Of a DNA stretch of 64,000 nucleotides, positions 44,872-63,400 are shown one piece after another. How positions within the stretch are numbered: position 1 is the stretch's first letter; each line of letters begins with the position of its first letter. Both the position numbers and the translations under genes were made by a program. Under the pieces are notes generated by a model. It had not been told where the DNA came from. It was given only the letters and a program-made list of their open reading frames with translations, and made no database searches. This DNA is from an uncultured Ignavibacteria bacterium (GTDB taxonomy: Bacteria; Zixibacteria; MSB-5A5; WJJR01), in NCBI GenBank assembly GCA_964371625.1, contig CAYJMP010000002.1:197034-261033 (forward strand), in the 5' to 3' direction.

Positions 44872-46140
44872 ATGTGGCGATTCTCCATGTTTCTGGGTCA
44901 ACGTCTCATCGCAGTCTTGCTGATCGTCCTGGCCGCCGGCTTGGGTGCCGGATGCTCTTGTGAGCTTACCGGCGATTGTGCGGACAGACTCTATCCTCCT
45001 TCCGGTCCCAGCCCCGTCGATGGCGCCGTCGAACAACCGATCACAATCACATTGTCATGGAACGGCAGCGAAGCCGCCAACGGTAAACACATCCGCCATG
45101 ACGTCTACCTGAGTGCGACCAATCCTCCGGTCCTCTATCGTCCGAGCGTTACCGGGCGAATGCTCACGCTCGATACACTGGCCAAGGCGCGCACATACTA
45201 CTGGCAGGTGGTGCTCATTGAGGAGGATGGCAACACGATCAAAGGACCGATCTGGACGTTTACCACAGAATTCCCGCCGAAATTTCTGTCCGTCGCCTAT
45301 CCCAACTGGGCTACAACGTGGCCGCGAGGCGAAGAGCGTACGGTGTCCTGGCGGTCTTCCTATGCGGGCAGCGCTGTTCGCATCGAGCTCTATAAGGCCG
45401 GTGCCAGTCTCTGCACGCTGGCAGATCAAACTTTAAACGACGGCTTCTTCACCTGGGAGATGAGCCTGTGCGCGCAGGACACCGACCCCGACTATCGTAT
45501 TAAGGTGACTTCGCTCCTCGATCAGACGTTGTATGACTACAGCGACTTCTTCACGATCACGACCGGTTGCCCGATTGAGATCACCGCGCCGCACGAAAAC
45601 GCGAAGTGGATCGCCGGCGAGTCACGCCCCGTGACTTGGCGCCCGTTGGGACTGGCGCCCAATCTCAAAGTCACACTGCACCTGTATCAAGCCTCGGATT
45701 TTCGCGGAGTGATAGCTCCTGTCACCTTGGATGACGGGCAGTTTGACTGGACAGTGACCGATTTCGATGCCAGCAGCGCGGAGGATTTTCGCGTCCGGAT
45801 CACCGCGATCAGCGGGTACAGCTGTTCGGAATTCAGCGACTTCTTCACCATACAGGCGTGCTCGGTTCGTGTCATGACACCCGCTGTCGGCGTGATCTGG
45901 CCTATCGGTACCCAACATATGATCACGTGGGATACGGCCTACATGCCGGACATCATCAGCATGGAACTCTACCATCGCGGCGAGTTCGTCTGCGTGCTCG
46001 ATGACCAGGTCCCCAACACGGGCTCCTACTTGTGGGCAGTCACCCGCTGTAGTTCCCCGTACGGAGAGAATTTCCAGGTGAAGTTGTACGACGGCACGAC
46101 GGGCCCCTGCGGCTTCAGCGCGAAATTCGACCTGCATTAA
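44872..46140 (+). CDS. Lipoprotein with four internal ~90-aa repeats, function unknown
   Basis: Lipobox LGAGCS; four modules each ending ...YSDFFTI / SEFSDFFTIQ / GFSAKFDL. Confidence 0.55.
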   Translation: MWRFSMFLGQRLIAVLLIVLAAGLGAGCSCELTGDCADRLYPPSGPSPVDGAVEQPITITLSWNGSEAANGKHIRHDVYLSATNPPVLYRPSVTGRMLTLDTLAKARTYYWQVVLIEEDGNTIKGPIWTFTTEFPPKFLSVAYPNWATTWPRGEERTVSWRSSYAGSAVRIELYKAGASLCTLADQTLNDGFFTWEMSLCAQDTDPDYRIKVTSLLDQTLYDYSDFFTITTGCPIEITAPHENAKWIAGESRPVTWRPLGLAPNLKVTLHLYQASDFRGVIAPVTLDDGQFDWTVTDFDASSAEDFRVRITAISGYSCSEFSDFFTIQACSVRVMTPAVGVIWPIGTQHMITWDTAYMPDIISMELYHRGEFVCVLDDQVPNTGSYLWAVTRCSSPYGENFQVKLYDGTTGPCGFSAKFDLH

Positions 46141-46159: not shown

Positions 46160-47551
46160 CTAATCTTTTGGATGCGGGACCGGGGAACTGGCGCGAGCGC
46201 CGGAATGCGGGATGCGACCGATCCGCTCTTGCGCGTCCTCGTCCGAGCGGTCGCCTTTCCCGCCAAACTTGATCCCGGCACTCCGCAGCATCTCGAACGG
46301 TGGCAACCCGCCGATGAGAACGAAGATGTAATCATTGGGAATGGTGAATTCTCCATCCCGGGAGCGGATTTCAACGTCGGCGGCGCTGATTCTCCGGACT
46401 TCTGAATCGAAGACGGCTTTGACCTTGCCGCGATCGATCAACTCACGAATCTTGTCCTCATTCTTCTTTTTCACGCGTGCAAATGTGCTTTTGCGATAGG
46501 ATATCCAGACGGTGTTCCCCGGCTGGCGGGCCAGACCGATCGCCGCCTCGACAGCACTGTCCCCGCCCCCGACCACGAGGAGATTCTGACCATTATACGA
46601 TCGGGCGTCGACCAACTGGTACATCACCTTCGAATGATCTTCCCCTTCGACACCGAGTTTGCGGGGAGTTCCGCGACGCCCCAGACCGAGAACGACTCTT
46701 CGTGATCGATAGATACCGGCACTGGTGATCACACGGAAGATCGGCCCCTCTTTCGAAACGTCGTCGACACGCTCTCTGGCACGGATCTGAATCCCGAATT
46801 TCTCGACGATCCCATTCCAGATTTCCAACAGTTCTTCCTTGGAATATTCTGACCTTTTCAGCCAACCGTAGAGCGGAATCTCCACGGGTTGAGTCATAAC
46901 CAGTTTGCGGTGTGGATAATGAAGTATCGTCCCACCGACCTGGGTTTGGTCGATCACGAGGTAATTCAACTTGTTCTCTATGGCCGTCAGAGCGGCCGAA
47001 AGCCCCGCAGGGCCGGAGCCGATGATGATGACATCGTACGCATCCTGCGACGCTTCGTTCGCAAGTTGTCCGGCGATGGCGTTCATCGCCTTGCGCCCTT
47101 GTGAGATCGCATTCCGAATGAGTGACAGGCCGCCGAGCTCTCCGACGATGTACAGACCCGGAACACTCGTTTCGTAGTCACGCGAGAGAATCGGTATGTC
47201 TTCCCGGTCACGCGTATCCCCGAGTCCGACAACGAGCGCGCCGACCGGACAGGCGCGTTCGCAATTGCCATGACCGACGCAACGTATTCCGTTAATGACC
47301 ATCGCCGTTCCATAGACGACGTCGAGCACATCGCCCTCCGGACACGCCGTCACGCAGCCGCCGCAGCCGATGCACAGACCCGGATCAATGAATGGGTACT
47401 GTCCTCGCGGTTTCTCGATTCCCGCCTGTAGCGCTTCGTGCTTGCGTCGCCATGCTACCCGTTGCTGCCGATGGAACTTGAAGGCGTATGGCAATACCAC
47501 CAATACGCCCAAACCGATGGCAACAGACCATATGAGCAGCGATTCAGACAT
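46160..47551 (-). CDS. Membrane-anchored ferredoxin-domain / FAD-dependent pyridine nucleotide oxidoreductase
   Basis: N-terminal TM helix; two 4Fe-4S motifs CIGCGGCVTACP and CVGHGNCERACP; FAD/NAD(P) folds IIGSGPAGLSAA and VVGGGDSAVE. Confidence 0.7.
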   Translation of the reverse strand: MSESLLIWSVAIGLGVLVVLPYAFKFHRQQRVAWRRKHEALQAGIEKPRGQYPFIDPGLCIGCGGCVTACPEGDVLDVVYGTAMVINGIRCVGHGNCERACPVGALVVGLGDTRDREDIPILSRDYETSVPGLYIVGELGGLSLIRNAISQGRKAMNAIAGQLANEASQDAYDVIIIGSGPAGLSAALTAIENKLNYLVIDQTQVGGTILHYPHRKLVMTQPVEIPLYGWLKRSEYSKEELLEIWNGIVEKFGIQIRARERVDDVSKEGPIFRVITSAGIYRSRRVVLGLGRRGTPRKLGVEGEDHSKVMYQLVDARSYNGQNLLVVGGGDSAVEAAIGLARQPGNTVWISYRKSTFARVKKKNEDKIRELIDRGKVKAVFDSEVRRISAADVEIRSRDGEFTIPNDYIFVLIGGLPPFEMLRSAGIKFGGKGDRSDEDAQERIGRIPHSGARASSPVPHPKD

Positions 47552-47566
47552 CGATGATCGTCACTT

Positions 47567-49198
47567 TTAGAATTGCAGGCTCATTCCCGCTTCCAACCTG
47601 TGCCCGCGCGTGTCGTCCCCGCCACTCAACTGACCGAGAGCATTGAGCGCGAGTGCCTGGGTAATTCCAACCCGGACTGTCAGATCCGCGCGTCGATTCA
47701 GACGGGCGTCGGAATTGCCTGCGAGAGTGTAACTGTACAGTCCCGCGCCAAGGCTGATCCAGTCGCGTTGACCAACACCCTGTCCCAAGGATGCGTTGAG
47801 ATTGTAACCGGAGGTGGCATCGCTCACGAAACGGACCCCCTGCACGCTGAAACTGCTCTTGGGGTTGAAAAGACCCTGCTTGCGCACGGCGCCATTGTAT
47901 GAGGTTGTCCGGTCCTGCTCTCCTTCCACTGAACGCACACCCGCACCGGCGGACAGATAGATCCCTTCCGGCAAGGCAAGATCGAATTGCGTCCGGACAC
48001 CCTGACGCACACGATCATCAAAGATGCTGTCGGCGATATCACGCGTCTCGTAGGTCCGGTAGCTCTTACGTGTGTCGTAGGACACCGACGCGGTGAGACT
48101 GCGCGTGAGATTCACCCGCCCCTGTGCGTAGATCGTCGAGAGACTGATTGACTGACTGTTTTCACTCTTGCGCCAGCCGCGATTGACATCAAGCTCGAGG
48201 CTGTGACTGAGGTTCCAACGGCCATTGCGTGCCATGCGGCCTTGGGCGAACAGCGCCTCGCGGCTCGCCGTCCCGCCATGGTACTGCCCGACGACGGAAA
48301 ACGTCTGATCCAGCAGGAAGTCGCGCGCCGACCCGCGCCGGTAACCAGCATACGCGCCGTAAGTCTGAAGATTCGGGCGATTCTCTGCGTACTGCCATTG
48401 CGAATTGGCTCCACCGAAAATCCCGATGCGCGCGAATTGCGAAACACGATACTCAATGGAACCGCCATCCAGCCGGCCGATGGCGCCCACGCGTGCTGGA
48501 TTGATTCGACCCATCGACATCCCTGCCCGCGAACCTTCGGGTTTGTACTCCAAAACGAAAGTCGCAATGCGACTCTCCCAAGAGTTCTCACGACCATCAT
48601 CACTGGGAACAACACGGCGATCCCGTCTCCCCGACGTTCGAAGGGCGAATGACAGCCCCGGCGTCCAGAGTGGCTCGACGCGGAGATCGATATCGACCCG
48701 CCCCTGGCCGAAATCCAGCCCGGCATCGCTGTGATCGTCCCAGTTGCTGTACATCATCGCAATTGAGCCAGATGCCTCCGGATGGATCGCCGGACCATCA
48801 TTGACGCGGGATTCGACGGGATCTACTCGTTGAATCTGGGAGAGCGCTTCTGCGGTTGACTGGGGAGCTGGTTCGGAGGTATCTGGCACGGCACGAAGCT
48901 CAACGTTGAGCTTGACGACATCACCTACCGATAGACTCACAACGGGTTCAGGCATCCGGCACGCCGAAGAGTGTTCTGCCAGATGGAGCACCTCGAGTTC
49001 GGCGATTTTCTGATCGTCACGGAATACCACGGGTCTCGCCCCGACAAACAGTCCTTCCGCCCTGCCCCCATTCAGATACACCAGGTCCGCGGAAACAAAT
49101 GTCACCTTGAGCACACGCTCGATGGTTTCCGCGCAGACCACAGACGCAGACAACAGGAGTATCGCGACGCAAATCGAGACGGCGACAAGAGATCTCAC
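47567..49198 (-). CDS. Outer-membrane beta-barrel protein (putative porin partner of the cytochromes)
   Basis: Signal peptide; alternating aromatic/hydrophilic beta-strand pattern; C-terminal ...GMSLQF with terminal Phe; GTG start overlaps cytochrome stop (GTGA). Confidence 0.6.
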   Translation of the reverse strand: MRSLVAVSICVAILLLSASVVCAETIERVLKVTFVSADLVYLNGGRAEGLFVGARPVVFRDDQKIAELEVLHLAEHSSACRMPEPVVSLSVGDVVKLNVELRAVPDTSEPAPQSTAEALSQIQRVDPVESRVNDGPAIHPEASGSIAMMYSNWDDHSDAGLDFGQGRVDIDLRVEPLWTPGLSFALRTSGRRDRRVVPSDDGRENSWESRIATFVLEYKPEGSRAGMSMGRINPARVGAIGRLDGGSIEYRVSQFARIGIFGGANSQWQYAENRPNLQTYGAYAGYRRGSARDFLLDQTFSVVGQYHGGTASREALFAQGRMARNGRWNLSHSLELDVNRGWRKSENSQSISLSTIYAQGRVNLTRSLTASVSYDTRKSYRTYETRDIADSIFDDRVRQGVRTQFDLALPEGIYLSAGAGVRSVEGEQDRTTSYNGAVRKQGLFNPKSSFSVQGVRFVSDATSGYNLNASLGQGVGQRDWISLGAGLYSYTLAGNSDARLNRRADLTVRVGITQALALNALGQLSGGDDTRGHRLEAGMSLQF

Positions 49199-52100
49199 TC
49201 GTCCCCCCGCGGGTGGCAGCTATAACACGCTGCGCTGAGGTACTGATACCCGTTTACTTCGTTGTGGTCGTCGTCCGTGTCAGTCCTGTTGTGCTCGTGG
49301 CAGAGGATGCACTCGAAGGTGGCGAAACTGGCCGAGTTGACGTGGCAGTCGGCGCAGTCATTCCACTTGTCTTTGTGTTTACCTGAGTAGATCGGGAAGT
49401 ATTGCGAATCGTGATTCCAATTGGCCGGAGTCCAGGCGGTCGTCGTATGGCATGTCTGGCACGTTGTCGGAAATCCTGCCGCCGCGTGATCGGGCGTCGC
49501 CGTGCTGTAATCGCTGCTGTGGCAGGCGAAGCACTCCGAGGACGTCCCGCTGTACCCTGATGCGTGGCAACTGTTGCACGTCACGGTCCGATGCGCACCG
49601 GTCAGCGGGAACCCCGTCTGATTGTGATCATAGGTCGCGGGTGTCCATGCGGTCGTCGTATGACACACTGTGCACTGAGTCGAGAAACCCGCGGTCACGT
49701 GATTGGGATCGGTGACACCGGTGTAATCGCTTTCATGACACGCCAGACATGCGGTCGGAGTGCCTGAGTACCCGATCGAGTGGCAGCTGTTGCATGTCAC
49801 CGTGATATGCGCGCCGGTCAATGGGAACGCGGACTGATTGTGATCGAATGACGCCGGTGTCCAGCCGCTCGTTGTGTGACACTGTTCGCAGAGTGTCGGG
49901 AAACCCGAGCTGACGTGATTCGGATCACTCGCTCCGGTGAAATCATCATGATGACAAGCATCGCATGCCGATGGCGTCCCGGTGTATCCCGCTGCGTGAC
50001 AGCTCGCGCAGGTCGTCGATGTGTGCGCTCCCGTCAACGGAAATCCGCTCAGGTTGTGATCGAAGGACGATGGTGTCCAAGCCGTCGTCGTGTGACACTG
50101 CTCACAGAGAGTTGGAAATCCCCCGGTGACGTGATTGGGGTCGGTGACTCCCGAATAATCACTCGAGTGGCAGGCGTAACACGCAGATGATGTTCCCGCG
50201 AATCCGGTTGAATGACAGCTGTTGCAGGTCACGCTCTGATGCGCTCCGGTCAGCGTGAATCCGGTCTGCGTGTGTGACCACGTCGATGGGTCCCAACTCG
50301 ACGTGTTGTGGCATTGCGTGCAGGTGGTCGAGAACCCCGCCGCCGTGTGATTGGGATCGGTGACGCCAGTGAAGTCGGCATGATGGCAGGCATCGCACTC
50401 GGTTGGTGTTCCCGTATATCCACTCGCGTGGCAACTGACGCATGTGACCGAGCGATGTGCTCCGGTCAACGCGAATCCACTGAGATTGTGATCGAAGGAT
50501 GATGGTGTCCACGCCGTCGTCGTGTGGCATTGCTCACAGAGTGTGGGGAATCCTCCGGAGACGTGGTTGGGGTCGGTGACCCCGGTGTAGTCGCTTGCGT
50601 GACAGGCGTAGCACGCCGCGGCAGTCCCCGCGAAGCCGGTGGAATGACAACTGTTACACGTGACACTTTGATGTGCTCCGGTCAGTGTGAACCCGGTTTG
50701 CGTATGCGACCAACTCGACGGGTCCCAATTCGACGTGCTATGGCACTGCACGCAGTTCGTGGAGAATGCCGCCAATGAGTGATTGGGATCGGACGCGCCG
50801 GTGAAATCACTGTGGTGACAGGCATCGCACTGCGTCGGTGTCCCGGTGTACCCACTCGCGTGACACTTGACGCATGTGATCGTCCGGTGTGCACCGGTCA
50901 GGGCGAATCCGGTTAAGTTATGATCCAATGTCGCAGGCGTCCAGCCGGCGGAAGTATGGCATTGGGCACAGGCTGTTGAGAATCCTGCGCTGATGTGATT
51001 CGGGTCGATCACGGCCAGGTAATCGGCGTGATGGCAGGCATCGCATTGCGTTGGTGTGCCCGCATACCCGGATGTATGACAGCTCGCACAGGAAACCGCG
51101 GTGTGTAGTCCTGTCAGTGCAAAACCTGTGGTGCTGTGGTTGAAAGTCGCCGGCTCCCAGGCAGACGTTCCATGGCATTGCGCGCAGTCGGTCGGAAAAC
51201 CCGAATGAGAGGGATCGTCCGCTTGCGTGAAATCGGTCTCATGGCAGGCGATGCACGCCGAGGCTGTCCCCGTGTACCCGGTCGTGTGGCATTGATTGCA
51301 CGCCACCGCCAAGTGCGCGCCGGTCAATGGGAATCCGGTCAGGTTATGATCGAGAGTCGCCGGCTCCCATGCCGCGGTTGTGTGGCATTGTGTGCATTCG
51401 GTCGGAAACCCGTTCGCTGCGTGACCCGGGTCGTCCGTGTTGGTGTAATCGGATTCATGGCAAGCGAAGCAGGCCGACGGTGTCCCGGTATACCCTGAGG
51501 CATGGCAATTATTACAGCTGACAGAGACGTGAGCGCCCGTGAGCGGGAATCCTGTCAGATTGTGATCGAGAGTGGCAGGAGTCCACGCCGTCGTGGTGTG
51601 GCACTGAGTGCACTCGGTTCCAAAACCGGCCGCCACGTGGTCCGGATCATCGACACCTGTGTAATCCGGCTCATGACAGGCGAGGCAGGCTGACGGTGTA
51701 CCCGTGAATCCCGAGGTATGGCAATTGTTGCATGAGACAGCGATATGGGCGCCAGTCAACGGGAAGTCGGATAGATTGTGATCCCAATCGGCCGTCTCCC
51801 ACGCCGACGTCGCGTGACATGTCGCACAGTCTGTAGAGAAATGCGAACCGTCATGATCGGGGTCGGCGGCGCCTGTGTAGTCAGTGGCATGGCAGGCATA
51901 GCATAGAGTCGAAGTTCCGGTGAAACCTGATTGGTGACAATCGTTACAGGCCGCAGCCACATGCGCACCCGTCAACGGGAAATCCGTCAGGTCGTGATCA
52001 ATGTCGGCCGGCTCCCATGCGGATGTCGTGTGACACTCCGCGCACTCGGTGGAGAAATCCGAAGCGACGTGATTGGGATCGACCGCCCCAGTGAAATCAC

Positions 52101-54321
52101 TCTGGTGGCACGCCAGGCATTCCGATGATGTACCGGTGTAGCCCGATGTGTGACAATTCTCGCACGTCACTGAGACATGCGCGCCCGTTAACGGGAAGGC
52201 CGTCAGATCGTGATCGAGATTGGCCGGTTTCCAAGCCGATGTCGTGTGACAGAGGGCGCACTCCGTCGGGAACCCCGCCGCCGCATGATCCGGATCCGGA
52301 GCCGCAGCATAATCGCTGCTGTGGCACGCATTGCATGTCAATTCTGTCCCCGTATATCCACTCGTGTGGCAATTCTCGCAAGTGACGCTCACATGCGCAC
52401 CCGTGAGCGGGAATCCGGTCAGGTTGTGATCGAGATTGGCCGGATCCCACGCCGAAGTGGTATGGCACTGCGCGCATTTTGTCGGGAAGCCGGCGGTGAC
52501 GTGATTGGGATCGGCCGCCAGCATGTAGTCGCTTTCATGGCATGCCACGCACTCGGATTGAGTTCCAGTGTATCCCGAAGCGTGGCAGTTCACACAGGAC
52601 ACTGCCGCGTGCGCGCCCGTCAGTGAGAACCCCGTGAGATCGTGATCAAGATTCGCCGGTGTCCAGGCCTCGGTCGTGTGACATTCCGAGCATTCAGTCG
52701 AGAATCCGGCAGCCGCATGATCCGGGTCGGGTGCGTTGGCATAGTCGTCACCGTGGCATGCGAGGCACGTGGACTGCGCTCCTGTGTACCCGCTGGCGTG
52801 GCAATTCTCGCACGTCACGCTCGCGTGGGCGCCGGTGAGCGGAAATCCCGTGAGATCATGATCGAGATTGGCCGGCCGCCAGCCTGCTGTTGTGTGGCAT
52901 TGCGTGCATTCAGTTGAGAATCCCGCCGTGACGTGGTTGGGATCTGCTGCTGTTGTGTAGTCCCCTTCATGGCAGGCAACACACGCAGTTGCCGTCCCCG
53001 TGAAACCCTCCGAATGGCAATTGTTGCAGGTCACCTCGACATGCACCCCGGTCAGCGGGAACCCAGTCATGTCGTGATCGAGATTCGCCGGAGTCCAACC
53101 GGATGTCGAATGGCACCCGGCGCACTCAGTTGAAAACCCTGCCGCGAGATGGTTCGGATCTGGCGTCGTACTATAATCGTTTTCATGGCAAGCGTAGCAG
53201 TCCGACGACGTGCCAGTATATCCTGATGTATGGCAGTTTTCGCAAGTGACGGCGACGTGTGCCCCGGTGAGCGGGAAATGTGTCAGGTCGTGATCGAGAT
53301 TCGCCGGCGCCCAGTCCTCCGTGCTATGGCAGAGCACACACTCCGTAGGGAATCCGGCCGTCTGGTGATTCGGATCTTCGGCGGTCGCGTAGTCGCTCTC
53401 ATGACAACCCGCACAGGTCGAAGCCGTGCCGGAGAATCCTTCAGTATGGCAACTGTTGCATGTCACCTCGACATGCGCACCCGTGAGCGGAAACGTCGTC
53501 AGATTATGATCGAGTTCGGCCGGAATCCAGGCAACCGTGGTGTGGCACTGGACACACTGTGTCGCAAATCCCGCTGTCACATGGTCCGGGTCGGGTGTCT
53601 CGCGGAACTCAGTTTCATGACAGGCAAAGCAGTCGGTCGAGGTGCCAGCAAATGCGGTCGCATGGCAACTATTGCATGACAAGGCCGCGTGTGCGTTTGT
53701 GAGTGGAAATGTCGCTGGGTGATCGTATACCGCGCTCGCCCAAGTGAGCGCTCCCGCTCCATGACACGACTCGCATTCCTGTGAGAATCCCGCCAAAGCA
53801 TGCTCGGGATTCGTGGCAGCCTGATAGTCGCCACTGTGGCATGAGGCGCATGCCGTCGAAGTCCCCGCGTATTCGCGCGGCATCTGATTCACATGGCAAG
53901 CGCCGCAATCGGCGATGGCGTGCGCGCCGGTAAGCGCGAAGCCCTTCTGCGCATGTTGTTCGAAGACTTCGCGATTGTTCTTCCAGTTTTCCGGGGTGTG
54001 GCAGGTTTGGCACTCGGTCCCTAGCTGGCCGCGATGGACATCGGCGTGGCAATCGGCGCAGGCCGATGCGGTCTCCACAAATTTGAGATCCTGGTGGCAG
54101 GTCGCGCACCGCGTCTTGGCGTGGACTCCAACCAGCGGAAAGCCCGTCTCCCCATGCGCAAATCCCGATGGCTGACGCATGTCCGTCCATGACTTCATCG
54201 TGTGGCACTGCTGACAATCCCAACGAATCTCCCCGTGCGGATTCAGGATCATCGTCTGTGCCGCCACGCTGACACAGAGGAGAGCAACCAGGACAGCTGC
54301 GAGGGCAAGAGTGCGCTTCAT
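49195..54321 (-). CDS. Giant multihaem cytochrome c (~70 CxxCH motifs by manual count)
   Basis: Signal peptide MKRTLALAAVLVALLCVSVAAQ; about 20 tandem ~56-aa modules each carrying three CxxCH; start ATG overlaps upstream cytochrome stop (ATGA at 54318-54321). Confidence 0.85.
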   Translation of the reverse strand: MKRTLALAAVLVALLCVSVAAQTMILNPHGEIRWDCQQCHTMKSWTDMRQPSGFAHGETGFPLVGVHAKTRCATCHQDLKFVETASACADCHADVHRGQLGTECQTCHTPENWKNNREVFEQHAQKGFALTGAHAIADCGACHVNQMPREYAGTSTACASCHSGDYQAATNPEHALAGFSQECESCHGAGALTWASAVYDHPATFPLTNAHAALSCNSCHATAFAGTSTDCFACHETEFRETPDPDHVTAGFATQCVQCHTTVAWIPAELDHNLTTFPLTGAHVEVTCNSCHTEGFSGTASTCAGCHESDYATAEDPNHQTAGFPTECVLCHSTEDWAPANLDHDLTHFPLTGAHVAVTCENCHTSGYTGTSSDCYACHENDYSTTPDPNHLAAGFSTECAGCHSTSGWTPANLDHDMTGFPLTGVHVEVTCNNCHSEGFTGTATACVACHEGDYTTAADPNHVTAGFSTECTQCHTTAGWRPANLDHDLTGFPLTGAHASVTCENCHASGYTGAQSTCLACHGDDYANAPDPDHAAAGFSTECSECHTTEAWTPANLDHDLTGFSLTGAHAAVSCVNCHASGYTGTQSECVACHESDYMLAADPNHVTAGFPTKCAQCHTTSAWDPANLDHNLTGFPLTGAHVSVTCENCHTSGYTGTELTCNACHSSDYAAAPDPDHAAAGFPTECALCHTTSAWKPANLDHDLTAFPLTGAHVSVTCENCHTSGYTGTSSECLACHQSDFTGAVDPNHVASDFSTECAECHTTSAWEPADIDHDLTDFPLTGAHVAAACNDCHQSGFTGTSTLCYACHATDYTGAADPDHDGSHFSTDCATCHATSAWETADWDHNLSDFPLTGAHIAVSCNNCHTSGFTGTPSACLACHEPDYTGVDDPDHVAAGFGTECTQCHTTTAWTPATLDHNLTGFPLTGAHVSVSCNNCHASGYTGTPSACFACHESDYTNTDDPGHAANGFPTECTQCHTTAAWEPATLDHNLTGFPLTGAHLAVACNQCHTTGYTGTASACIACHETDFTQADDPSHSGFPTDCAQCHGTSAWEPATFNHSTTGFALTGLHTAVSCASCHTSGYAGTPTQCDACHHADYLAVIDPNHISAGFSTACAQCHTSAGWTPATLDHNLTGFALTGAHRTITCVKCHASGYTGTPTQCDACHHSDFTGASDPNHSLAAFSTNCVQCHSTSNWDPSSWSHTQTGFTLTGAHQSVTCNSCHSTGFAGTAAACYACHASDYTGVTDPNHVSGGFPTLCEQCHTTTAWTPSSFDHNLSGFALTGAHRSVTCVSCHASGYTGTPTECDACHHADFTGVTDPNHTAAGFSTTCTQCHNTSSWDPSTWSHTQTGFTLTGAHQSVTCNSCHSTGFAGTSSACYACHSSDYSGVTDPNHVTGGFPTLCEQCHTTTAWTPSSFDHNLSGFPLTGAHTSTTCASCHAAGYTGTPSACDACHHDDFTGASDPNHVSSGFPTLCEQCHTTSGWTPASFDHNQSAFPLTGAHITVTCNSCHSIGYSGTPTACLACHESDYTGVTDPNHVTAGFSTQCTVCHTTTAWTPATYDHNQTGFPLTGAHRTVTCNSCHASGYSGTSSECFACHSSDYSTATPDHAAAGFPTTCQTCHTTTAWTPANWNHDSQYFPIYSGKHKDKWNDCADCHVNSASFATFECILCHEHNRTDTDDDHNEVNGYQYLSAACYSCHPRGDE

Positions 54322-56003
54322 GGCGTCGCCCCCTTGGCTGTCACACTGTCTGTCCCGTGGCAGGCGCGACAACTCCTGTCATCAATATGATAGTCCACAA
54401 ACGCGAAAGCGGCGTCCTGGGTGGGCTTATGACAGCCAGCGCAAGGCACCTTGGCGTGCGCGCCGTCGAGCGGGTATTCAGTTAGCTTGTTGTGATCAAA
54501 GAGCGTGGCCTGCCAATTTGAAGGCGTGTGGCAGCGGTCGCATCGGATTTGTGGCACCGTATCGGCAACCGCAAACTGACCACGGTGCACATCGCGGTGG
54601 CACATCTCGCAATCACGACGCAACGGTGCGAACGCAAGCCGGGCAATGTCCACGGCATTCGAATCGCCGCGGTGGCATGATGCGCAATTGACAGACGCAT
54701 GCTTTCCCGTCAAGGCGAAACCAGTGCTGTCGTGCGCAAACACAACCGCGGACCAGCTTGCTTCCGAATGACATTCTTGGCACCCGGAGCGCTCGACGAT
54801 CCGTGCTAACTGACCCTTGTGGACATCCTTGTGACAATCCTGACAGCGCATTGACGACCACGTGTAATGCCCCTCACGCGCCACCATGTTTCCTTTAGCA
54901 TCGCCATGGCACTGAACACACGGCAAGGCCAAGTGCGCCTGGCGTAACGTGAATCGCGTGGCCTTATGTTGTTCGATGGTGAATTGTGCAGGCATATACC
55001 CGGCGACAGTGTGGCACTCTTCACACGCGCCGCCCTGCGCCCGGTCGGCGAACTCGCCTTTGTGATGGTCCTGATGACAATCACGACAGGCTTGGAATTT
55101 CAGGCCGCTCTTGGGTTTGCCAGCCGCATGGCATTTGTCGCAGGCAACTATCCTGTGACGTCCTTCCAGCGGATAACGGGTTTTGCTGTGATCGAATCCC
55201 GCTTGCTCCGCGACCTGCCACCCTGTCGTCGTATGGCATCCCTCGCACCGCGATCCGAGACGCCCCGCGTGGGAATCCTTATGGCAGTTGCTGCAATTCT
55301 CGTGTCGCACATTGGCAAAACGCGAGTACTCGTGATCGGTCGTCGAACTCGGATCTTCGACTTTCTGATGACATTTGGCGCAGGCCGTCGTCTCGTGGCG
55401 GCCGGTCAGAACGAACTTCGTCCGGTCATGATCGAACCCAGGCGCCGGTGACCATCCCTCAAATGTGTGACAGCGATTACAGTCCGAAGCCAGCTGGCCA
55501 CGGTGCTCGTCGAAATGACAGGACGCACAACTCGTATCCAAACCGAGGTAAGTCTTGGAGAGGTCTTTCTGTCGGAGTCGGAGCTGCTCGCTATCCCGAT
55601 TGAAGTCGGTCTTGTGGCAGGCACGGCACGTCGTCTTCGCATGCTTTCCTTGAAGCGGGTAGCCTGCAAGTTGGTGATCGAAACCCTTTTCACCGGCCTT
55701 CCAGTAGATCAAGTCGAAATCACGCCCATGGTGTTCCACGTGGCAGTTCTCACATTCCCGATACTCGGCCTGCGCGTGCAACCCGCGTCCGCGATCGATG
55801 CGCGCCTGCATCTCGGTGTGACAGCTGAGACACTTGCCGTGCATCTGATCCGAATCCCGATCATGGCACTTGTTGCAGTTCTCGACACCGTCCAAAAAGG
55901 CGTGGGAACGATGCAGATCGCCCGGCGACAGTTGCGCGTTCGCTCTTTGGCAGAGTGTGGCCATCATGATAAATCCGACGATCTGTGCCAGCCCGCGAGG
56001 CAT
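54318..56003 (-). CDS. Multihaem cytochrome c (~20 CxxCH motifs)
   Basis: Internal ATG with signal peptide MPRGLAQIVGFIMMATLCQRANA; about 20 CxxCH counted. Confidence 0.85.
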   Translation of the reverse strand: MPRGLAQIVGFIMMATLCQRANAQLSPGDLHRSHAFLDGVENCNKCHDRDSDQMHGKCLSCHTEMQARIDRGRGLHAQAEYRECENCHVEHHGRDFDLIYWKAGEKGFDHQLAGYPLQGKHAKTTCRACHKTDFNRDSEQLRLRQKDLSKTYLGLDTSCASCHFDEHRGQLASDCNRCHTFEGWSPAPGFDHDRTKFVLTGRHETTACAKCHQKVEDPSSTTDHEYSRFANVRHENCSNCHKDSHAGRLGSRCEGCHTTTGWQVAEQAGFDHSKTRYPLEGRHRIVACDKCHAAGKPKSGLKFQACRDCHQDHHKGEFADRAQGGACEECHTVAGYMPAQFTIEQHKATRFTLRQAHLALPCVQCHGDAKGNMVAREGHYTWSSMRCQDCHKDVHKGQLARIVERSGCQECHSEASWSAVVFAHDSTGFALTGKHASVNCASCHRGDSNAVDIARLAFAPLRRDCEMCHRDVHRGQFAVADTVPQIRCDRCHTPSNWQATLFDHNKLTEYPLDGAHAKVPCAGCHKPTQDAAFAFVDYHIDDRSCRACHGTDSVTAKGATP

Positions 56004-56011
56004 GATGAAGA

Positions 56012-57034
56012 TCAGGACATCCAGCCATAGCCGGTCCAAACGGCCACGACAATGTGTATTCCCATCACGAGGTACATGACGATCGCGAAGGGTTTGTGGA
56101 ACACGTGCCAGTAATGGAACAACCGCTGCATCTGATGCCACACTTGAATGCGGCGATCCAGGAGCGTGATCTGCGCGACGACGTCATTCAACTGCGAGAT
56201 CTGGTTGTGACTACGTCCCCCGGAATTCGCGGATTCGATGGCTCGGCGACGCCGCAAGAGCTGCTTCAAGTCATCAACGACGATCCACGCGAGCGAACGC
56301 CACGCGCCTTCGCTGGCTTCCACCTCGCGCGATTGCTCCAAGTGCGCTACGGCCGACTCCGAAAGTCCGAATTCCGACTTCAAGACACCGCGCAGGCGAT
56401 TCCGTGATTGATGGACCTCTTCCAACGTCATCTGGTCGCCGCGCAGATTGCGCGGAATCTGAGAATACAGATACCGTCCCAGGACTCCGCTGACGGCAAC
56501 GCAGACCATGGACCAGAAGGCGACGGCCACCAATCCCTGAACTTTGAACGAAGTGTGCAGTACGATCAAAAGCGGCCCGACAACTCCGAAGTAGATGTGG
56601 ACGTCAAGCCAGTATGGAAGTGCGCCCCAGCGCGACAGTCCCTGGAAGCGCTTCCGCACCGTGTACCCGAGCATCAGCACCATCATTGATGCGCCGACGA
56701 TACCAAAGAGCAACCCGCGTGATCCGGCGGGACGCAGCTCGCGATAATCGGCGTGATGCGGACGCTCCGCATACGGAGTGGAATAATACGAGTACCCGTC
56801 GAGGAAGAGCGCCAGCCAGATCGCAATCGAGACCGTGTACGCGATAGTCTTCCAGCGAAGCCGCCGACGCGCATTGTGGACAGAAGTTGTCTCGCCCTTT
56901 TCCGCCAGTGGAGCCGACGGAAATGTGGTCACTTCTTGTACAACTTCCGAGTTCAACCCCTGCACAGGCAGTCCCCTGAATGGCTGTGGACAATCGGAGT
57001 CACCGTCGACGGTGACAACACCCGGACACCACAT
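56012..57034 (-). CDS. Integral membrane protein, possible dihaem cytochrome b-type subunit; start uncertain
   Basis: Four or more TM helices with paired His (LDVHIYFGVVGPLLIVLHTSF; HYWHVFHKPFAIVMYLVMGIHIV); 8 bp upstream of the 20-haem cytochrome. Confidence 0.45.
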   Translation of the reverse strand: MWCPGVVTVDGDSDCPQPFRGLPVQGLNSEVVQEVTTFPSAPLAEKGETTSVHNARRRLRWKTIAYTVSIAIWLALFLDGYSYYSTPYAERPHHADYRELRPAGSRGLLFGIVGASMMVLMLGYTVRKRFQGLSRWGALPYWLDVHIYFGVVGPLLIVLHTSFKVQGLVAVAFWSMVCVAVSGVLGRYLYSQIPRNLRGDQMTLEEVHQSRNRLRGVLKSEFGLSESAVAHLEQSREVEASEGAWRSLAWIVVDDLKQLLRRRRAIESANSGGRSHNQISQLNDVVAQITLLDRRIQVWHQMQRLFHYWHVFHKPFAIVMYLVMGIHIVVAVWTGYGWMS

Positions 57035-57390: not shown

Positions 57391-57430
57391 GTTGAAATGG
57401 AAAGGGCCCGCGAGAAATCCCCGCGGGCCC
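57391..57430 (-). terminator. Terminator hairpin after giant adhesin gene
   Basis: gggcccgcg / cgcgggccc 9-bp stem; U-rich tract follows on minus strand. Confidence 0.5.
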
Positions 57431-57454: not shown

Positions 57455-60400
57455 TTATCTGATCAGCGTCATCTTACGCGTGGCGTTCCACTTGGGAGTC
57501 ATCACGCGATAGAAGTAGACACCGCTGGCGACCTCGGAGCCGTCGCGGTCGCGGCCGTCCCAACTCACCCGGACATTGCTCGCATCCGCCGATCCCTCAA
57601 AGGTCCGGACAACCTGACCTAGAACGTTGTATATCGACACGTTCCAGTCCGTCGCCTCCTTCAGATCAAATCCAATCACCGTTCCGGCATTAAAGGGATT
57701 GGGATAATTCTGAAGCAATGCATACTCCGTGGGGACGATCGCTTTCGCCGCCGTCGTCGACAAGAGCGCCCCATGGGCATCGGACAATTGCACCTCCACC
57801 AACTCGATGGTGCCTTCACCATTTGTCGGGATGGACAACACGTCCTGATGACCGGCGCCGATAGTCGCCCACTCGCCTTCCCATGACGGATGAATGAGGA
57901 CGCGCAATTCCCCGGCATTGGCCAGATAACGGACAGTCATACCGGCTCCGCCAGCCATCAACGCCGGCTCTCCGACGGCCAGGCCCTCGTAGCGGAAGAC
58001 AAGCAAAGCGCCGCCCAAATCAACTGGCGCCGATGTCGCCACTGTCAGGTGTTTGTCCTCGACCCGGACCACAGCGGTCCCTGAATTCGCGTACGGCGAG
58101 AGCTTCGGCGAGCCGGTTCCCGTTCCGGGCGGGAACGGCTGCTCGTCGCCGGTGATGACGCGGATCAGGTAGATCAGGTCCGCCACCGTGAGGACGATGC
58201 CGTCATCGTTCACGTCGCTCGCCAGGATCTGGACCTCTTGCCAGGTCGGATCCCACACCCACGAACCATAGATGAAGTAGTTCGTGAACAGAACCGCGTC
58301 ACCGACCTCATTGGCGATGCCGTTGAGGTTGATATCGCCGCGGTCATCCGGTGGCTCCATGATGCACACATATCCGGTCGAGAAGCAGATTCCCGGAATC
58401 GGGTTGACCTTGGCGTTCGACTGGCAAGTATCAACAATCATCAGATGATCGACCCAGGTCGTATCGCCCGAGCGGCTCGATATCGTATTGTCGCCGCAAT
58501 CGAGCCAACAGAAGTTGATCGGCACACACTGGCCAATCAGGTTCCGGTCTGGAGAGACTTGGAAGGTCAATTCGGCGATTGAACCGATCGGATTGTACAC
58601 CGACTCCGGCGGCGTGATGCCATTGTTCATGTTCGCGATGCCGATCAGTCGCACGTACCCCGACGGGCAGGCGCCCACGCAGTTCCCGTTGGGTCCATAC
58701 CGGTACGTGAAGTACTCCCAATCCTCAATCGCCTCCGCGCTGTTGGCATACAAGAAGGTCAAGACCGATTGATCGTAGCAGATCAGGAAGTCAAACCCGC
58801 CGATGGGTCCCGCCACGCTGTCGATATTGACCGGCACAGTCACCTGCTGTCCGTTCAGGATCTGCAGCGTGCCGTCACCATCGCCGATCGACACGATCAG
58901 CAAGCAGTTACAGAGATCTTCATCGATGTCAAGGTAGACACAGAAGCTCTGCTGACACGATTCGCCGCAGGCGTCGGTGCAGCGGATCGTCACACACACC
59001 TGGCCGTTCCCAAACGGCGTGTAAACCCAGTTGCCGTTGATGAGACTGCCGGGGCCGTTGATGATCTGGCAACTGACGAGATTGCCGTCCGGATCAATGG
59101 CACCCACCGGAATCGAGACCTGCTGAGGAACGCAATTCTGATGGATCGTCAGATCTCCGGGAATCTGGCATTGCGGCGGGTCATTCAGATCAAATGTGAC
59201 CGTGAAATCGCCGTCCGCGTACGCGCCGCAGGAATCCGTCACGCGGAAAACGATCGTCACCACCTGATCGCTGTTGGAGTTGTAGCACCACTGACCGTTT
59301 GCGATCGTTCCCGGACCGCTGATTTTGGTAATCGTAACCGGTTTGCCCTCGGGATCGGTTCCGCAGACCGGCACACAGATCTGCGCGTTGTCACATTGCG
59401 AAACAGTCGTGTCGCTAACCTGACAGGCCACCGGCGGCTGATTGCGCGTTACGGTCACGTTGACCGTGTCGTAATCAGTCGCACCGCAAGTGTCCTGCAC
59501 GCGGGCCACGATCGTATAAACGCCACCGGCAGGAGGCGTGAAACAAACACGATTCAGCACCTGATCCAGCACCGCTCCGCCCGGACCGGCAATCAACGAC
59601 TCAGTGAGGGCGTTGCCGTTCGGATCGGTCGCAGTATAGTCGACGCAAATCGGCTCGGCGTTGCATTGGAACACGGCCTTGTCGGCGCCGAAGCTGATGG
59701 AAGGTGGATCGTTCGTGGTAACCGTTACAACCACCGTGTCACAATCGGTGAGCCCGCAACTGTCGGTCAGACACACAATGATCGGGAAGCTGCCCTCGCC
59801 GGCAGGAGTGAAACACACCTGGTTTGCGCCGGCATTCAACACCGCGCCGGCCGGACCTGAGGCGAGCACCTCACTCGAACCATTCAGGCCATTCGGGTCG
59901 CTTGTCGTGTAATTCACACAGATCTGCGCCGGCGTACATTGGAACACGTTTTGATCCGGACCGAATGCAATCACCGGCGGATCGTTAACCTGGACGCTGA
60001 CGTTGAAGCTGCTTTCACAGAAGTTATTGCAATCGTCGCTGCAACGGATCGTCACCGAGAAGGACGCGTCGCCGACCGGCGTGTAAGTCCAGTTGCCACT
60101 GACCACATTGCCCGGTCCAACCGTAACGACGCACGTCGGCGTCGCGTCACAGTTGTCTGTTGCCGACACCGGAATCGTGATCTGCGTCGGCGCGCATTGG
60201 AAGTAGTTGAACGGTCCCGCCGGAATGTTGCAGACCGGCGCCTGCGTATCCTGAACGGTGATGATCTGCGTGCAGGTTGCCTGATTGCCGCAATCATCGA
60301 CCGCGGTCCAGACTCGCGTGATTGTGCCCGAATAGCCGCCGCACCCTGTGAGATTCGGAGTCTCGACCAGAGTCGGAGCCACGCTCGGATCACAGTTGTC

Positions 60401-63400
60401 GGAGGCTGTCACTGTCGCAGCCGGCGGCACCGGGTCATTGCACGGAATCGTCGTGTTCGCCGGACAGCCCGAGAGCGTCGGCGCAACGTTGTCGATCACC
60501 GTGATGGTGCGCGAGCACTGCGCCTGGGCGCCGCATGAATCTGTCGCCGTATACGTGTCTGTGTAGACCAACGGGCTGGCAGTACAACCGGAGCCACCGT
60601 TGTCCGTGCGGTTGCAGATTACATTAACCGTCCCAGCGCCGCCGACTACCGTCACGTCGGCCGGATTGCACGCTGGAACTAGAGTCGCACACGTGAAGTT
60701 CAGATTACCCGGACAGGTGATCTGCGGCAGATTGCCCACATTGAACGTGACATCAAAGACTTTCTGGCAGAAGGCGTCACAGGCATCTGTGCACTTGATG
60801 GTGACCGTCACCGTGCCGCTGCTGACAGGCGTGTAACACCAGTTTCCACCGCTCAGGACACCCGGCCCACCGTCAATTAGACATTCAACGAGATTTCCGT
60901 CGCCATCCGTCGCCGAAACCGGGAGACAGACTTGCATCGGAGCGCACTGGAAGATCGTGGTGTCATTCGGCACCGAACACTCCGGAGCCTCATTCATCAC
61001 AAAGGTGACCGTGAATGTCTGTTCGCAGGTGAAATCGCAGGAATCCACGCAGCGGATCGATACGACGACGGTCTCGTCACCGCTCGGTGTGTAGCACCAG
61101 TTCCCGTTGAGCGTCCCCGGACCACTGATAATGGAACAAGACTTGAGGTTGCCATCAATGTCAGTGGCCGACACCGGCAGACAGACCGGCGTCGGGGCAC
61201 ACTGGAAGATGGTCGTGTCTGCCGGAACGGAGCATTCCGGTGGATCGTTTACCACAAAGGTCACGGTAAATGTGGCTTCACAATACAACCCGCATGAATC
61301 CGTGCAGCGGATTGTCACGGGGACATCAAAGCTCTTGTCGCCACCACCGGTCGGAGTGTAACACCACTCACCGTCAAAGATGCCGCCGTCGCCGCTGACA
61401 ACCTCGCAATTGTCGAGATTGCCATTCGGATCAATCGCGGAAACCGGAAGACAAACCTCCGTCGGCGTGCATTGGTAAATCGTCGTGTCATTCGGCACTT
61501 GGCAGACAGGCGCATCGTTGATGTCGATGGTCACATCAAACTGATCGGGACAGAAGCCCCCCAGTGTGTCATAACACCGTATGGTCACCGTAAATGACGT
61601 GTCCCCGGTCGGGGTGTAACACCACATACTGTCCGCGCCCAAAACGCCAGGACCATCGTAGACCACACAAGTCGTCGGCCCGTACATGCTCGTGGCGAAG
61701 ATCTTTCCAAGACAAATCTCCGTCGGCGTGCATTGCACCACCGCCGTGTCCTCGGGGATATGGCAGACAGGATTCTCGTGCGGCGAAATGAGTATGAAGA
61801 CGGTGTCGTAATCGACCGCGCCGCACGGGTCGGTCACACTGACAACAAGGAAGAAATTGTCCGCCACATCCGGAACGAAGCAATAGAGATTGGCCGATGT
61901 GTCGAGATAATAAGTACCGAGATTGCTGTACTCCAACTGCTCGACAAGGCCACCGAGTCCTTGTGGATCGCTGACTGCGTAGGATAAGCAGACCGTATCC
62001 CCATCGAGATTCTGGACAACATACGGGTCCGCGCCCAAGTCGATGTCCGGCGGATCGTTGAGCCCAAAGTCGACACTAAACGTCGCCTCGCAATAGGCGC
62101 CGCAGGCGTCGGTGCAACGGATCGTCACATTCGCGATTTCATCGCCCGTCGGTGTGTAGCACCAGTTCCCGCCCGACACCGTGCCCGGCCCCGCCACCAC
62201 CGCGCAACTGTTGAAGTTGCCGTCGGCATCGCTCGCCGAAACCGGCAGGCAGATCTCGGCGCCCGCGCATTGGAAGATCGCCGTGTCATTCGGAACACTG
62301 CACACCGGCGCTTCATTGATCTGGAACGTGACGCTGAACGTCTCTTCACAGTAGCTGCCGCAGGCGTCCGTACAACGAATGGTCACGTTTACCGTCTGAT
62401 CGCCTGACGGCGTGTAACACCAATTCCCTCCGGACAGTGACCCCGGCCCGTTCACAATCGCGCAACCGCTCAAGTTGCCGTTCACGTCCGAACCCGATAC
62501 TGGCAGGCAAACCTGCGCCGGAGCACATTGGAAGATCGTCGTATCGTTCGGGACAATACAGACCGGCGCGTCGTTGACATTGAACGTGACGCTGAAGGAC
62601 TCGTCACAAAATGCCCCGCAGGCATCGGTGCAACGGATCGTCACGTTGACCGTCTCGTCGCCCGATGGCGTGTAACACCAATTCCCGCCCGAGACTGTTC
62701 CCGGACCGACGACGACCGCGCAGCCCGAGAGGTTCCCATTCGGGTCGACAGAGGAGACGGCGCGGCAGACCTGGGTCGGCGCACATTGGAAATAGGTCGT
62801 GTCGCTGATCGGCGTGCAAACCGGGGCGTCGTTGATCTGGAACGTCACGCTAAAACTCTCGTCACAGTATGCGCCGCAGGCATCACTGCAACGAATCGTC
62901 ACATTGACCGTCTCGTCGCCTGACGGCGTGTAACACCAGTTGCCGCCCGAGACCGTACCCGGCCCAGTCAGCACTGCACAGCTGGCGAAGTTGCCGTTCA
63001 GATCGGTGGCGGATACGGGGCGACAAACCTCTGCCGGAGCACACTGGAAGTATGTCGTGTCACTGACCGAGACACACGCCGGCGCATCATTCATGCTGAA
63101 CGTGACGCTGAACGACTCCTCGCAATAGGCGCCGCAAGCATCGGTGCAACGAATCGTCACATTGACCGTCTCGTCGCCCGATGGCGTGTAGCACCAGTTC
63201 CCGGACGACAGCGTCCCGGGACCGTTGACAATGGCGCAGTTGCTCAGATTGCCGTCGGCATCGGTCGATAACACCGGCAGACACACCTGTGCAGGCGCGC
63301 ATTGGAAGAACGATGTATCCGGAATCGGCGTGCAGACCGGAGCCTCGTTAATGGCAAATGTCGCGCTGAAGGACTCATCGCAGAATGCGCCGCAGGCGTC

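Follow-up and report, generated by a model that had tools for sequence, protein, structure and literature searches.

The PCC3 class of predicted porin-cytochrome c clusters was first recognized in Sideroxydans lithotrophicus ES-1, Leptothrix cholodnii SP-6 and L. ochracea L12, with further members reported later from other Proteobacteria (He et al. 2017, PMC5566968; Hoover et al. 2023, PMC9900912). Its members encode a porin together with an "extracellular" cytochrome that has a median of 34 hemes and as many as 85 and is rich in Thr, Ser, Ala and Gly, a "periplasmic" cytochrome with a median of 21 hemes, and an inner-membrane protein (IMP) of about 300 aa, whose five helices carry an SGxxG motif on helix 4 and W-x3-H-x13-H motifs on helices 3 and 5; both cytochromes are built from repeats at 22-39 aa per heme, and the IMP has been modeled as a quinone-active di-heme b protein (PMC5566968). 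A pangenome study of the Gallionellaceae reported 21, 24 or 27 hemes in one of the PCC3 cytochromes and 10-35 in the other. In the related subgroup II of PCC4, a gene for an iron-sulfur (Fe-S) protein adjoins that of the membrane protein (PMC5566968). Here we describe a five-gene locus at positions 46160-57034 of a 64,000-nucleotide stretch of DNA (the window; positions 197,034 to 261,033 of contig CAYJMP010000002.1, assembly GCA_964371625.1) from an uncultured bacterium labelled Ignavibacteria and placed among the Zixibacteria by GTDB. The locus fits every published descriptive feature of PCC3, a likeness that extends to gene content, heme counts and motifs. We estimate a probability of roughly 0.55 that the five genes encode an envelope-spanning electron conduit, a variant of the predicted PCC3 class.

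The five consecutive genes, and all parts of them described below, lie on the minus strand and are transcribed in the order E-D-C-B-A (57034..46160). They encode a putative di-heme membrane protein (E), two multiheme cytochromes (D and C), an outer-membrane barrel (B) and a cytoplasmic Fe-S flavoprotein (A). An earlier description of this DNA made from the letters alone (the sequence-only reading) had noted five co-directional genes with start/stop overlaps and an 8-bp gap, all of which was borne out by the open reading frame (ORF) calls and by a check of the junctions: the stop of D overlaps the start of C as ATGA at 54321..54318, the stop of C overlaps the start of B as GTGA at 49198..49195, and the gaps between E and D and between B and A are 8 and 15 bp. 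Upstream, the neighboring gene F ends at a G+C-rich hairpin with a T run (about 57395-57430) and is separated from gene E by about 360 bp of non-coding DNA, while downstream gene A is convergent with a plus-strand gene that ends at 46140, so that the five genes look like one self-contained operon. A scan for consensus promoters and terminators inside it gave nothing beyond the expectation from shuffled sequence.

The likeness to PCC3 is clearest in the cytochromes. Gene C (49195..54321) encodes, from its ATG, a secreted cytochrome c of 1708 aa, in which the number of CxxCH motifs, expected at about 70, was computed as exactly 70; it contains 147 His and has 24.4 aa per heme. Gene D (54318..56003) encodes the second secreted cytochrome c, of 561 aa, and the count of about 20 hemes anticipated for it proved to be exactly 20 CxxCH, at 28 aa per heme. 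CxxxCH, CxxxxCH and CxxCK motifs are absent from C and D alike. The N-terminus of C is a predicted Sec-type signal peptide, MKRTLALAAVLVALLCVSVAAQ, that of D is a Sec-type signal-like sequence, MPRGLAQIVGFIMMATLCQRANAQ, and neither has a lipobox. Against Pfam, C scores 204 bits with Cytochrome_C7 (2.2e-61) and 134.7 bits with Cytochrom_CIII, and D scores 89.5 bits (1.3e-25) and 45.6 bits, with a further match to Cytochrom_c3_2; the cutoffs used were 24.8 bits for Cytochrome_C7 and 22.9 bits for Cytochrom_CIII. These scores support the view that C and D are, as far as sequence families can tell, secreted polymers related to cytochromes c7 and c3.

Set beside PCC3, the window thus holds a porin gene, two secreted, repeat-rich multiheme cytochromes whose 28 and 24.4 aa per heme fall in the published range, and an IMP of about 300 aa in which the fourth of five transmembrane helices bears SGxxG and the third and fifth bear W-x3-H-x13-H. 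As there, a porin stands with one cytochrome of about 21 hemes (21, 24 or 27 in PCC3, 20 or 23 here) and one of variable length (10-85 in PCC3, 7-70 here), both are built from repeats, and the variable one is rich in Thr, Ser, Ala and Gly, the composition of C being 14.6% Thr, 12.5% Ala and 8.3% Ser. The porin of L. cholodnii is predicted to have 22 strands, as is B. The sequence-only reading had placed C among the most heme-dense proteins known, but its 24.4 aa per heme is typical of the class and no record. There are also differences. Published PCC3 clusters have four genes and no cytoplasmic reductase, whereas the cassette adds a fifth, A, which is at times fused to C. In the two proteobacterial examples with data, repeats of about 66 aa occur in the "periplasmic" protein and shorter ones in the "extracellular" protein, whereas here 72-aa triheme modules make up the variable protein C. 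The hosts differ as well, being Proteobacteria there and Zixibacteria with other phyla of the FCB group, Acidobacteriota and Gemmatimonadota here.

This distribution emerged from a scan of one genome per species, which gave 98 confirmed homologues of B, of which 80 loci were kept; ORFs were called in all 80 and searched with the five window proteins, and 48 loci had enough flanking DNA to count as context-complete. The 80 loci come from about nine phyla in all, with hosts among the Zixibacteria, Ignavibacteria, Calditrichia, Latescibacterota, KSB1, Eisenbacteria, Krumholzibacteriia, Acidobacteriota (Vicinamibacteria, Thermoanaerobaculia and Holophagae) and Gemmatimonadota, as well as one metagenome-assembled genome (MAG) each of Fibrobacter and Polyangiaceae; none of the 80 is from the Pseudomonadota. 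The closest homologues of B and A that bear an organism name are labelled Zixibacteria. The gene order of the window recurs around B homologues in a Vicinamibacteria MAG and in a Joint Genome Institute metagenome, and across the loci the cassette is arranged either as E-D-C-B-A or, in the Gemmatimonadota and some others, as E-A-D-C-B. A cultured example is provided by Emticicia oligotrophica DSM 17448 (Bacteroidota), whose 100-kb plasmid pEMTOL02 carries the full cassette (L086:8848-20646; NC_018749.1, 81299-89995) in the order ccsA-E-A-D-C-B, ccsA being a cytochrome c biogenesis gene. Its proteins are of 281 aa (E), 440 aa (A), 635 aa with 23 hemes (D), 1001 aa with 40 hemes (C) and 538 aa (B), and are respectively 36%, 39%, 34%, 43% and 22% identical to those of the window. 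No paper linking Emticicia to the cassette was found, full-text searches for it in the host phyla returned general mentions of multiheme cytochromes only, and a 2026 peat preprint describes other, smaller systems of 8-13 hemes. Searches of plasmids with E, D and B for a proteobacterial PCC3 cluster gave only Emticicia and the small three-gene modules described below. In one Acidobacteriota MAG contig (CAWKAS010000005.1), two B-homologue cassettes (L034 and L047) lie about 13 kb apart, with extra copies of E, A and cytochrome genes between them.

The architecture of C is modular throughout. A head of about 175 aa holds seven hemes with CxxCH spacing of 36, 16, 16, 35, 19 and 25 (53731..54255); it is followed by an array of 20 tandem triheme modules of 72 aa (216 bp) each (49417..53730) and by a tail with the last three hemes, spaced 35, 15 and 28 (49198..49416). 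Within the array the spacing of 32, 15 and 25 is strictly periodic through all 20 units, and each module contains three CxxCH motifs and six invariant His (columns H3, H14, H23, H38, H50 and H63). The sequence-only reading had described about 20 near-identical modules of 56 aa with three hemes each; the number and the heme content stand, whereas the length and the near-identity do not, as the mean pairwise identity of the 72-aa modules is 57% (60% in DNA). Self-identity of the gene is 0.567 at lags of 216 and 432 bp, the periods that Tandem Repeats Finder also reports, and falls to the background of 0.261 at a lag of 168, so that a 56-aa (168-bp) period was rejected. Six invariant His for every three hemes, and 147 His for 70 hemes, fit bis-His ligation throughout and leave no obvious catalytic heme.

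Modules resemble others in the same protein about as much as they resemble those of an orthologue. The most alike are modules 15 and 17, the one pair that reaches the maximum of 93% in protein and 81% in DNA, and both map onto module 14 of the 58-heme orthologue in L006. They belong to a recent duplication of a two-module (432 bp) unit at 49937..50910, which Tandem Repeats Finder reports with a period of 432, 2.3 copies and 77% matches, and which indicates that the number of modules is still changing, by unequal recombination. Tandem repeats of 216 and 432 bp had been flagged as a likely place for assembly collapse, and a count of 70 hemes that had arisen by collapse or expansion of the array during assembly must be weighed against them. 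We consider this very improbable. The modules are only about 60% identical in DNA, and 81% at most, and repeats so diverged pose little difficulty for assembly. At least 23 contigs of separate assemblies, many exceeding 1 Mb, encode a protein identical over all 1708 aa (it appears in 40 index blocks, and a cluster look-up lists 30 contigs), and in the two assemblies that were checked, ENA assemblies ERZ13693049 and ERZ13692949, the 5127-bp gene has zero DNA mismatches to the window. Furthermore, orthologues with 52, 55, 58, at least 67 and 70 hemes are present in other genomes.

When CxxCH spacing was compared in 13 C-type proteins of different phyla, that of Emticicia included, a common plan appeared: a seven-heme head (36, 16, 16, 35, 19-21, 25), n triheme modules (30-33, 15-16, 25) and a near-constant three-heme tail (34-36, 15, 26-29). 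The number of hemes is therefore 10+3n, with n from 2 to 20, and instances were seen with 16 (n = 2), 22, 28, 40 (Emticicia), 46, 52, 58 and 70 hemes, the last in the window and in a Gemmatimonadales MAG (L068). Across the loci, in which C-type heme counts span 7 to 70, the count is 1 modulo 3 in 45 of the 58 C-type ORFs that are not truncated (p=6e-12), those that depart from the rule being plausibly frameshifted or fragmented calls. The partner D behaves differently, with 20 hemes in 35 loci and 23 in ten. Gene C always lies directly upstream of B, often in translational coupling with it, and in L037 and L039 the C-B pair occurs with no other cassette genes nearby. The constancy of D against the tenfold variation of C, together with the attachment of C to B, suggests that D would be a periplasmic spacer and C the partner of the barrel.

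Gene A (46160..47551) encodes a membrane-anchored iron-sulfur flavoprotein of 463 aa, in which an N-terminal transmembrane helix is followed by a CxxCxxCxxxCP motif, a CxxHxxCxxxCP motif and a domain of TrxR/YpdA type for binding flavin adenine dinucleotide (FAD) and NAD(P). The helix spans residues 5-23 and leads into a strongly basic stretch, KFHRQQRVAWRRKHE, and no twin-arginine motif was found at the N-terminus, so the bulk of A should be cytoplasmic. Pfam matches are to Pyr_redox_3 (4.2e-47) and to Fer4 families, and the nearest solved structures are YpdA/Bdr proteins (1e-27) and TrxR-type ferredoxin-NADP reductases. The protein had been described as a membrane-anchored reductase with two [4Fe-4S] clusters and FAD; the helix, the two-cluster Fer4 domain and the FAD/NAD(P) domain agree with this, but the second cluster motif is not all-Cys, consisting of three Cys and one His that is kept in 64 of 69 homologues. 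The dinucleotide motifs GSGPAG and GGGDSA are kept in 64 and 67 of the same 69. A role as a YpdA bacillithiol-disulfide reductase or as a thioredoxin reductase was considered and rejected, as A scores 178.8 bits against a cutoff of 339.9 with the YpdA equivalog model and 93.4 bits against a cutoff of 343 with that of TrxR, and has no redox-active Cys pair. All seven of its Cys lie in the Fe-S motifs, which makes a CxxC disulfide impossible, and A cannot be a disulfide reductase. In public data, thousands of A-type proteins go under the name "YpdA family bacillithiol system oxidoreductase" or "thioredoxin reductase (NADPH)", probably in error, since they have no redox-active Cys pair and stand in the cytochrome cassette in every case checked.

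That A is part of the system follows from three observations. Of the 48 context-complete loci 43 have it, and it immediately follows B in 21 and E in 12. Three of three homologues picked on long contigs solely by their similarity to A proved to lie inside the same cassette. In addition, seven loci of Acidobacteriota (L053-L056, L058, L064 and L066; for example L055:6209-9937), five of which are labelled Thermoanaerobaculia, have A and C joined in a single reading frame. At about 60% identity across many matches, A is also the best conserved part of the cassette. The fusions run from the transmembrane helix through the Fe-S domain, the FAD domain, a short linker and a hydrophobic segment to a C-type cytochrome of 25-37 hemes, and their junction sequences differ between MAGs, which argues that they are inherited and not sequencing errors. 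Their product would have cytoplasmic Fe-S and FAD domains and a periplasmic domain of 25-37 hemes. The hydrophobic segment retains the basic n-region and the A-Q end of the signal peptide of C, and cleavage at this conserved A-Q site is plausible.

The remaining link across the inner membrane would be gene E (56012..57034), the counterpart of the PCC3 IMP. Its longest ORF is of 340 aa, but translation probably begins at the GTG at 56965, for a product of 317 aa, the length of homologue P0022, which is 96% identical. An AlphaFold2 model shows five long helices, in agreement with hydropathy analysis. The paired His that had been noticed in its transmembrane helices correspond to two W-x3-H-x13-H motifs, beginning at W142 on helix 3 and at W309 on helix 5, and helix 4 carries SGVLG at 182. 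The four His, the SG and the G are invariant in 24 homologues, distant ones included, and the two Hx13H pairs and SGxxG are retained in all 55 homologues from the loci. Matches of E to known families are all sub-threshold and are all to di-heme b families: DUF4405 (PF14358; 1.6e-4, 22.6 bits against a cutoff of 26.7), Ni_hydr_CYTB (0.028) and the ferric reductase/NOX domain Ferric_reduct (PF01794; E 0.09, 13.3 bits against a cutoff of 28). Homologue P0090 has a precomputed PF14358 match, and DUF4405 proteins have been shown to bind heme b (PMC11334425). Comparison of the E profile with solved structures gave chance-level matches only, and a fold search gave no decisive match. The two Hx13H pairs on parallel helices, the SGxxG motif and the consistent direction of the weak matches suggest that E is a putative di-heme b protein. 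With the carriers of this kind (ferric reductase/NOX, MsrQ, PepSY-TM (FoxB) and DUF4405) it shares His pairs 13 residues apart on helices 3 and 5 and a cytoplasmic flavoprotein partner of NAD(P)H type, a logic like that of a split NADPH oxidase or ferric reductase. It differs from them in having five helices and not six, with a cytoplasmic insert of about 100 aa between helices 4 and 5, and in that the flavoprotein A is a separate protein of TrxR/YpdA fold with a two-cluster Fer4 domain and no fused FNR-type domain. E was present in 44 of the 48 context-complete loci.

The plasmid search with E turned up distant relatives (about 24-27% identity) on 53 records, most of them proteobacterial. Six copies were inspected, three of them in Bradyrhizobium BTAi1 and one each in Salinimonas, Sphingobium and Methylophaga (L087:9961-13451; L091, with two copies; L088, L089 and L090). 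These relatives are di-His proteins of about 240 aa, some annotated "iron reductase", and in all six copies the gene lies between one annotated as a 2Fe-2S iron-sulfur cluster-binding protein and one for a cytochrome c3 of about 250 aa. Near four of the six, the annotation includes genes for resistance to copper or heavy metals. One 2Fe-2S partner that was scanned against Pfam matched FAD_binding_6, NAD_binding_1 and Fer2, a reductase of another fold in the same position. The recurrence of E-type proteins with cytoplasmic Fe-S reductases suggests a shared function in bringing reducing power from the cytoplasm through the inner membrane to c-type hemes in the periplasm.

Gene B (47567..49198) encodes the protein of 543 aa that had been taken for a beta-barrel ending in Phe, an assignment that held: a signal peptide is followed by a small N-terminal beta domain (about residues 25-100), a linker of low confidence, a barrel and a C-terminal Phe, and the AlphaFold2 model of the barrel has 22 strands (mean predicted local distance difference test score, pLDDT, 78). 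The model supports an outer-membrane location for B. Clustered at 50%, the family found with its profile comprises 2323 representatives, of which 738 match at E<=1e-30 and the best 150 are all close relatives. B has no match to the MtrB/PioB family, FhuA and ordinary porins scoring better than MtrB, and its 22 strands compare with 26 in the barrel of MtrB. The cassette departs from the MtrCAB, MtoAB and PioAB systems in other respects too. No lipoprotein partner of MtrC/OmcA type is encoded, C and D being without a lipobox, and the sole MtrC-related match of C is to the generic Mtrc-MtrF_II-IV heme domain; the operon also encodes inner-membrane and cytoplasmic modules. With the DmsE/MtrA model (TIGR03508; cutoff 192.2), D scores 51.5 bits and C 43 bits, far below the cutoff. 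Membership of B in MtrB/PioB, and of C and D in MtrA/DmsE, was accordingly rejected on family scores.

Among characterized cytochromes, C resembles polymers of c7-type triheme domains such as the dodecaheme "nanowire" GSU1996 of Geobacter, with which it shares the Cytochrome_C7 match and tandem triheme units of about 70 aa. GSU1996 has four such units, whereas C has 20 together with a head and a tail; all hemes of C appear to be bis-His coordinated, and no solved structure is detectably similar to it by sequence. A search of solved structures with full-length C gave no match, and one with the module profile gave marginal matches only, to cytochrome c3 (E 0.008) and SorB. With the NCBIfam model nanowire_3heme (TIGR04257; cutoff 40), D reaches 25.2 bits and C does not appear among the matches.

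Taken as an envelope-spanning conduit, the cassette would work as follows. At the cytoplasmic face of the inner membrane, A would accept electrons from NAD(P)H, or possibly from reduced ferredoxin, and pass them through FAD and two Fe-S clusters, one of which would be His-ligated. E would then move them across the inner membrane by way of two stacked b hemes, with the His pairs of helices 3 and 5 as their ligands, and D would bridge the periplasm as a rod of fixed length with 20 hemes. C, with its head, n modules and tail, would partner the barrel B and thread through it, and at n = 20, with 70 bis-His hemes, could reach tens of nm outside the cell to minerals, humic matter, electrodes or other cells. 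GSU1996 spans 12 nm with 12 hemes, or about 1 nm per heme, and by analogy a 70-heme C in extended form could reach about 60-70 nm. Outward flow is favored because the conserved cytoplasmic partner is an NAD(P)-type flavoprotein and because, on standard bioenergetics, export of electrons from a negative-inside cell is downhill, whereas reduction of NAD(P)+ from donors at the level of Fe(II) is strongly uphill. Such outward flow would act as an electron sink for redox balancing, in which NAD(P)+ is regenerated with no proton pumping. In a more specific form, the cassette may be a quinone-independent, NADPH-oxidase-like NAD(P)H:extracellular acceptor oxidoreductase with a heme cable in two pieces, the outer one tunable by three hemes at a time (10+3n, to about 70 hemes). 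We offer this version tentatively, as less likely than not and less probable than the conduit itself.

The sequence-only reading had seen in these genes a complete conduit from inside to outside of the porin-cytochrome type. This view holds in the light of the synteny, the barrel model and the His of E, but not as something unprecedented, since PCC3 had already been named. Several points nonetheless weigh against the conduit as we describe it. The export signal of C is of the ordinary Sec type, without a lipobox, and genes for a secretion system are absent from the vicinity. A was not near B in five of the 48 context-complete loci and is not among the four published proteobacterial PCC3 components, so a link to NAD(P)H may not be general, and He et al. 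proposed quinones as the redox partner of the inner-membrane protein (PMC5566968). The A::C fusions place the N-terminus of C at the inner membrane; if their hydrophobic segment is uncleaved, the head of C would be tethered there and C, not D, would span the periplasm. PCC3 genes are also down-regulated on Fe(II) in Sideroxydans ES-1. This last point also speaks against a conduit that runs inward, taking up electrons from Fe(II), minerals, cathodes or partner cells and delivering them through E to the quinone pool or through A to NAD(P)+. Heme wires are in principle reversible, PCC3 was discovered in neutrophilic Fe(II) oxidizers with its IMP modeled as a quinone-active cytochrome b (PMC5566968), and the IMP of one PCC3 copy is up-regulated in iron-oxidizing cells of Sideroxydans CL21. 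We nevertheless regard inward flow as unlikely. A cytoplasmic donor fits better than quinone with an NAD(P)-type flavoprotein that is found in 43 of 48 loci and fused to C in seven; besides the uphill reduction of NAD(P)+ from such donors, electrons moving inward would be opposed by the membrane potential; and the host phyla are mostly organotrophs, not known iron oxidizers.

It is also conceivable that C and D stay in the periplasm, as an electron store (a capacitor) or as a reductase chain for soluble substrates, with B as a diffusion porin or an assembly factor. The plain Sec signals and the want of a lipobox or of dedicated secretion genes nearby would then be expected, the related three-gene modules on plasmids, which lack a porin and lie in copper or metal-resistance islands, suggest a periplasmic job, and charge storage has been proposed in the literature for large cytochromes. 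We think this somewhat less probable even than inward flow, since C always adjoins B, persists with it in isolated C-B pairs, and as a rod of 70 hemes at about 1 nm per heme (on the analogy of GSU1996) would far exceed the width of the periplasm, while a fixed D with a tenfold variable C is the pattern of an internal spacer plus an external extension. Very little suggests that C and D are catalysts akin to the reductases of nitrite, hydroxylamine or sulfite. The sequence-only reading had itself named cytoplasmic or signal-less homologues, and clustering with nitrite or hydroxylamine reductases, as findings that would tell against a conduit; secretion signals are present in both proteins and neither matches an NrfA, HAO or octaheme family. 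The only support that could be sought for catalysis, weak sub-threshold matches to QrcA, HmcA and DmsE, points to proteins that are themselves electron carriers. Moreover, six His per three hemes in each C module imply that all are bis-His with no open coordination site, CxxCK is absent, and 24 aa per heme leaves no room for a catalytic pocket, so that wires are far preferable to enzymes as a description of these proteins.

The candidate class, its heme counts of up to 85 and its 22-39 aa per heme were already known (PMC5566968), and what this locus and its relatives add is the wide spread of the cassette outside the Proteobacteria, an Fe-S flavoprotein that is conserved and in some loci fused, the 10+3n plan of one cytochrome against a partner of fixed length, and a plasmid-borne example in a cultured organism. 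The conserved NAD(P)-type reductase A offers the widespread clusters of the PCC3 type a concrete candidate for the entry point and the direction of electron flow and, if the quinone-independent NAD(P)H route is correct, would reassign the entry point of electrons for the whole class. The 10+3n rule and the fixed-length partner amount to a structural hypothesis, in which a constant periplasmic spacer would be combined with a variable external reach, and the C proteins offer biophysics and bioelectronics a set of naturally occurring protein wires in a gradation of lengths. Acidobacteriota, Gemmatimonadota, Zixibacteria and their relatives from soils, sediments and wastewater commonly carry the cassette, and if it mediates extracellular electron transfer, the list of organisms that take part in the redox cycling of iron, manganese and humic substances would grow. 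The copy on the Emticicia oligotrophica plasmid makes experiments feasible without the need to culture candidate phyla.

Two further features of the window lie outside the operon. Gene F (57455-63985, minus strand), which runs off the end of the window, encodes a giant Cys-rich repeat protein with more than 2176 aa, 149 Cys and repeats of about 95 aa within the window; its domains include Big_9, cohesin-like and FlgD_ig domains and a type IX secretion C-terminal sorting domain, and a full version on another contig (L001) was called at 3004 aa, with VWA domains. The sorting domain is in keeping with a host of the FCB group. Between 35981 and 39828 the G+C content drops to 0.51-0.52, from about 0.58 elsewhere, over two overlapping plus-strand genes, one for a protein of 822 aa with HATPase_c_3 as its sole domain and one for a protein of 461 aa with no family match, and this stretch may be a horizontally acquired island.

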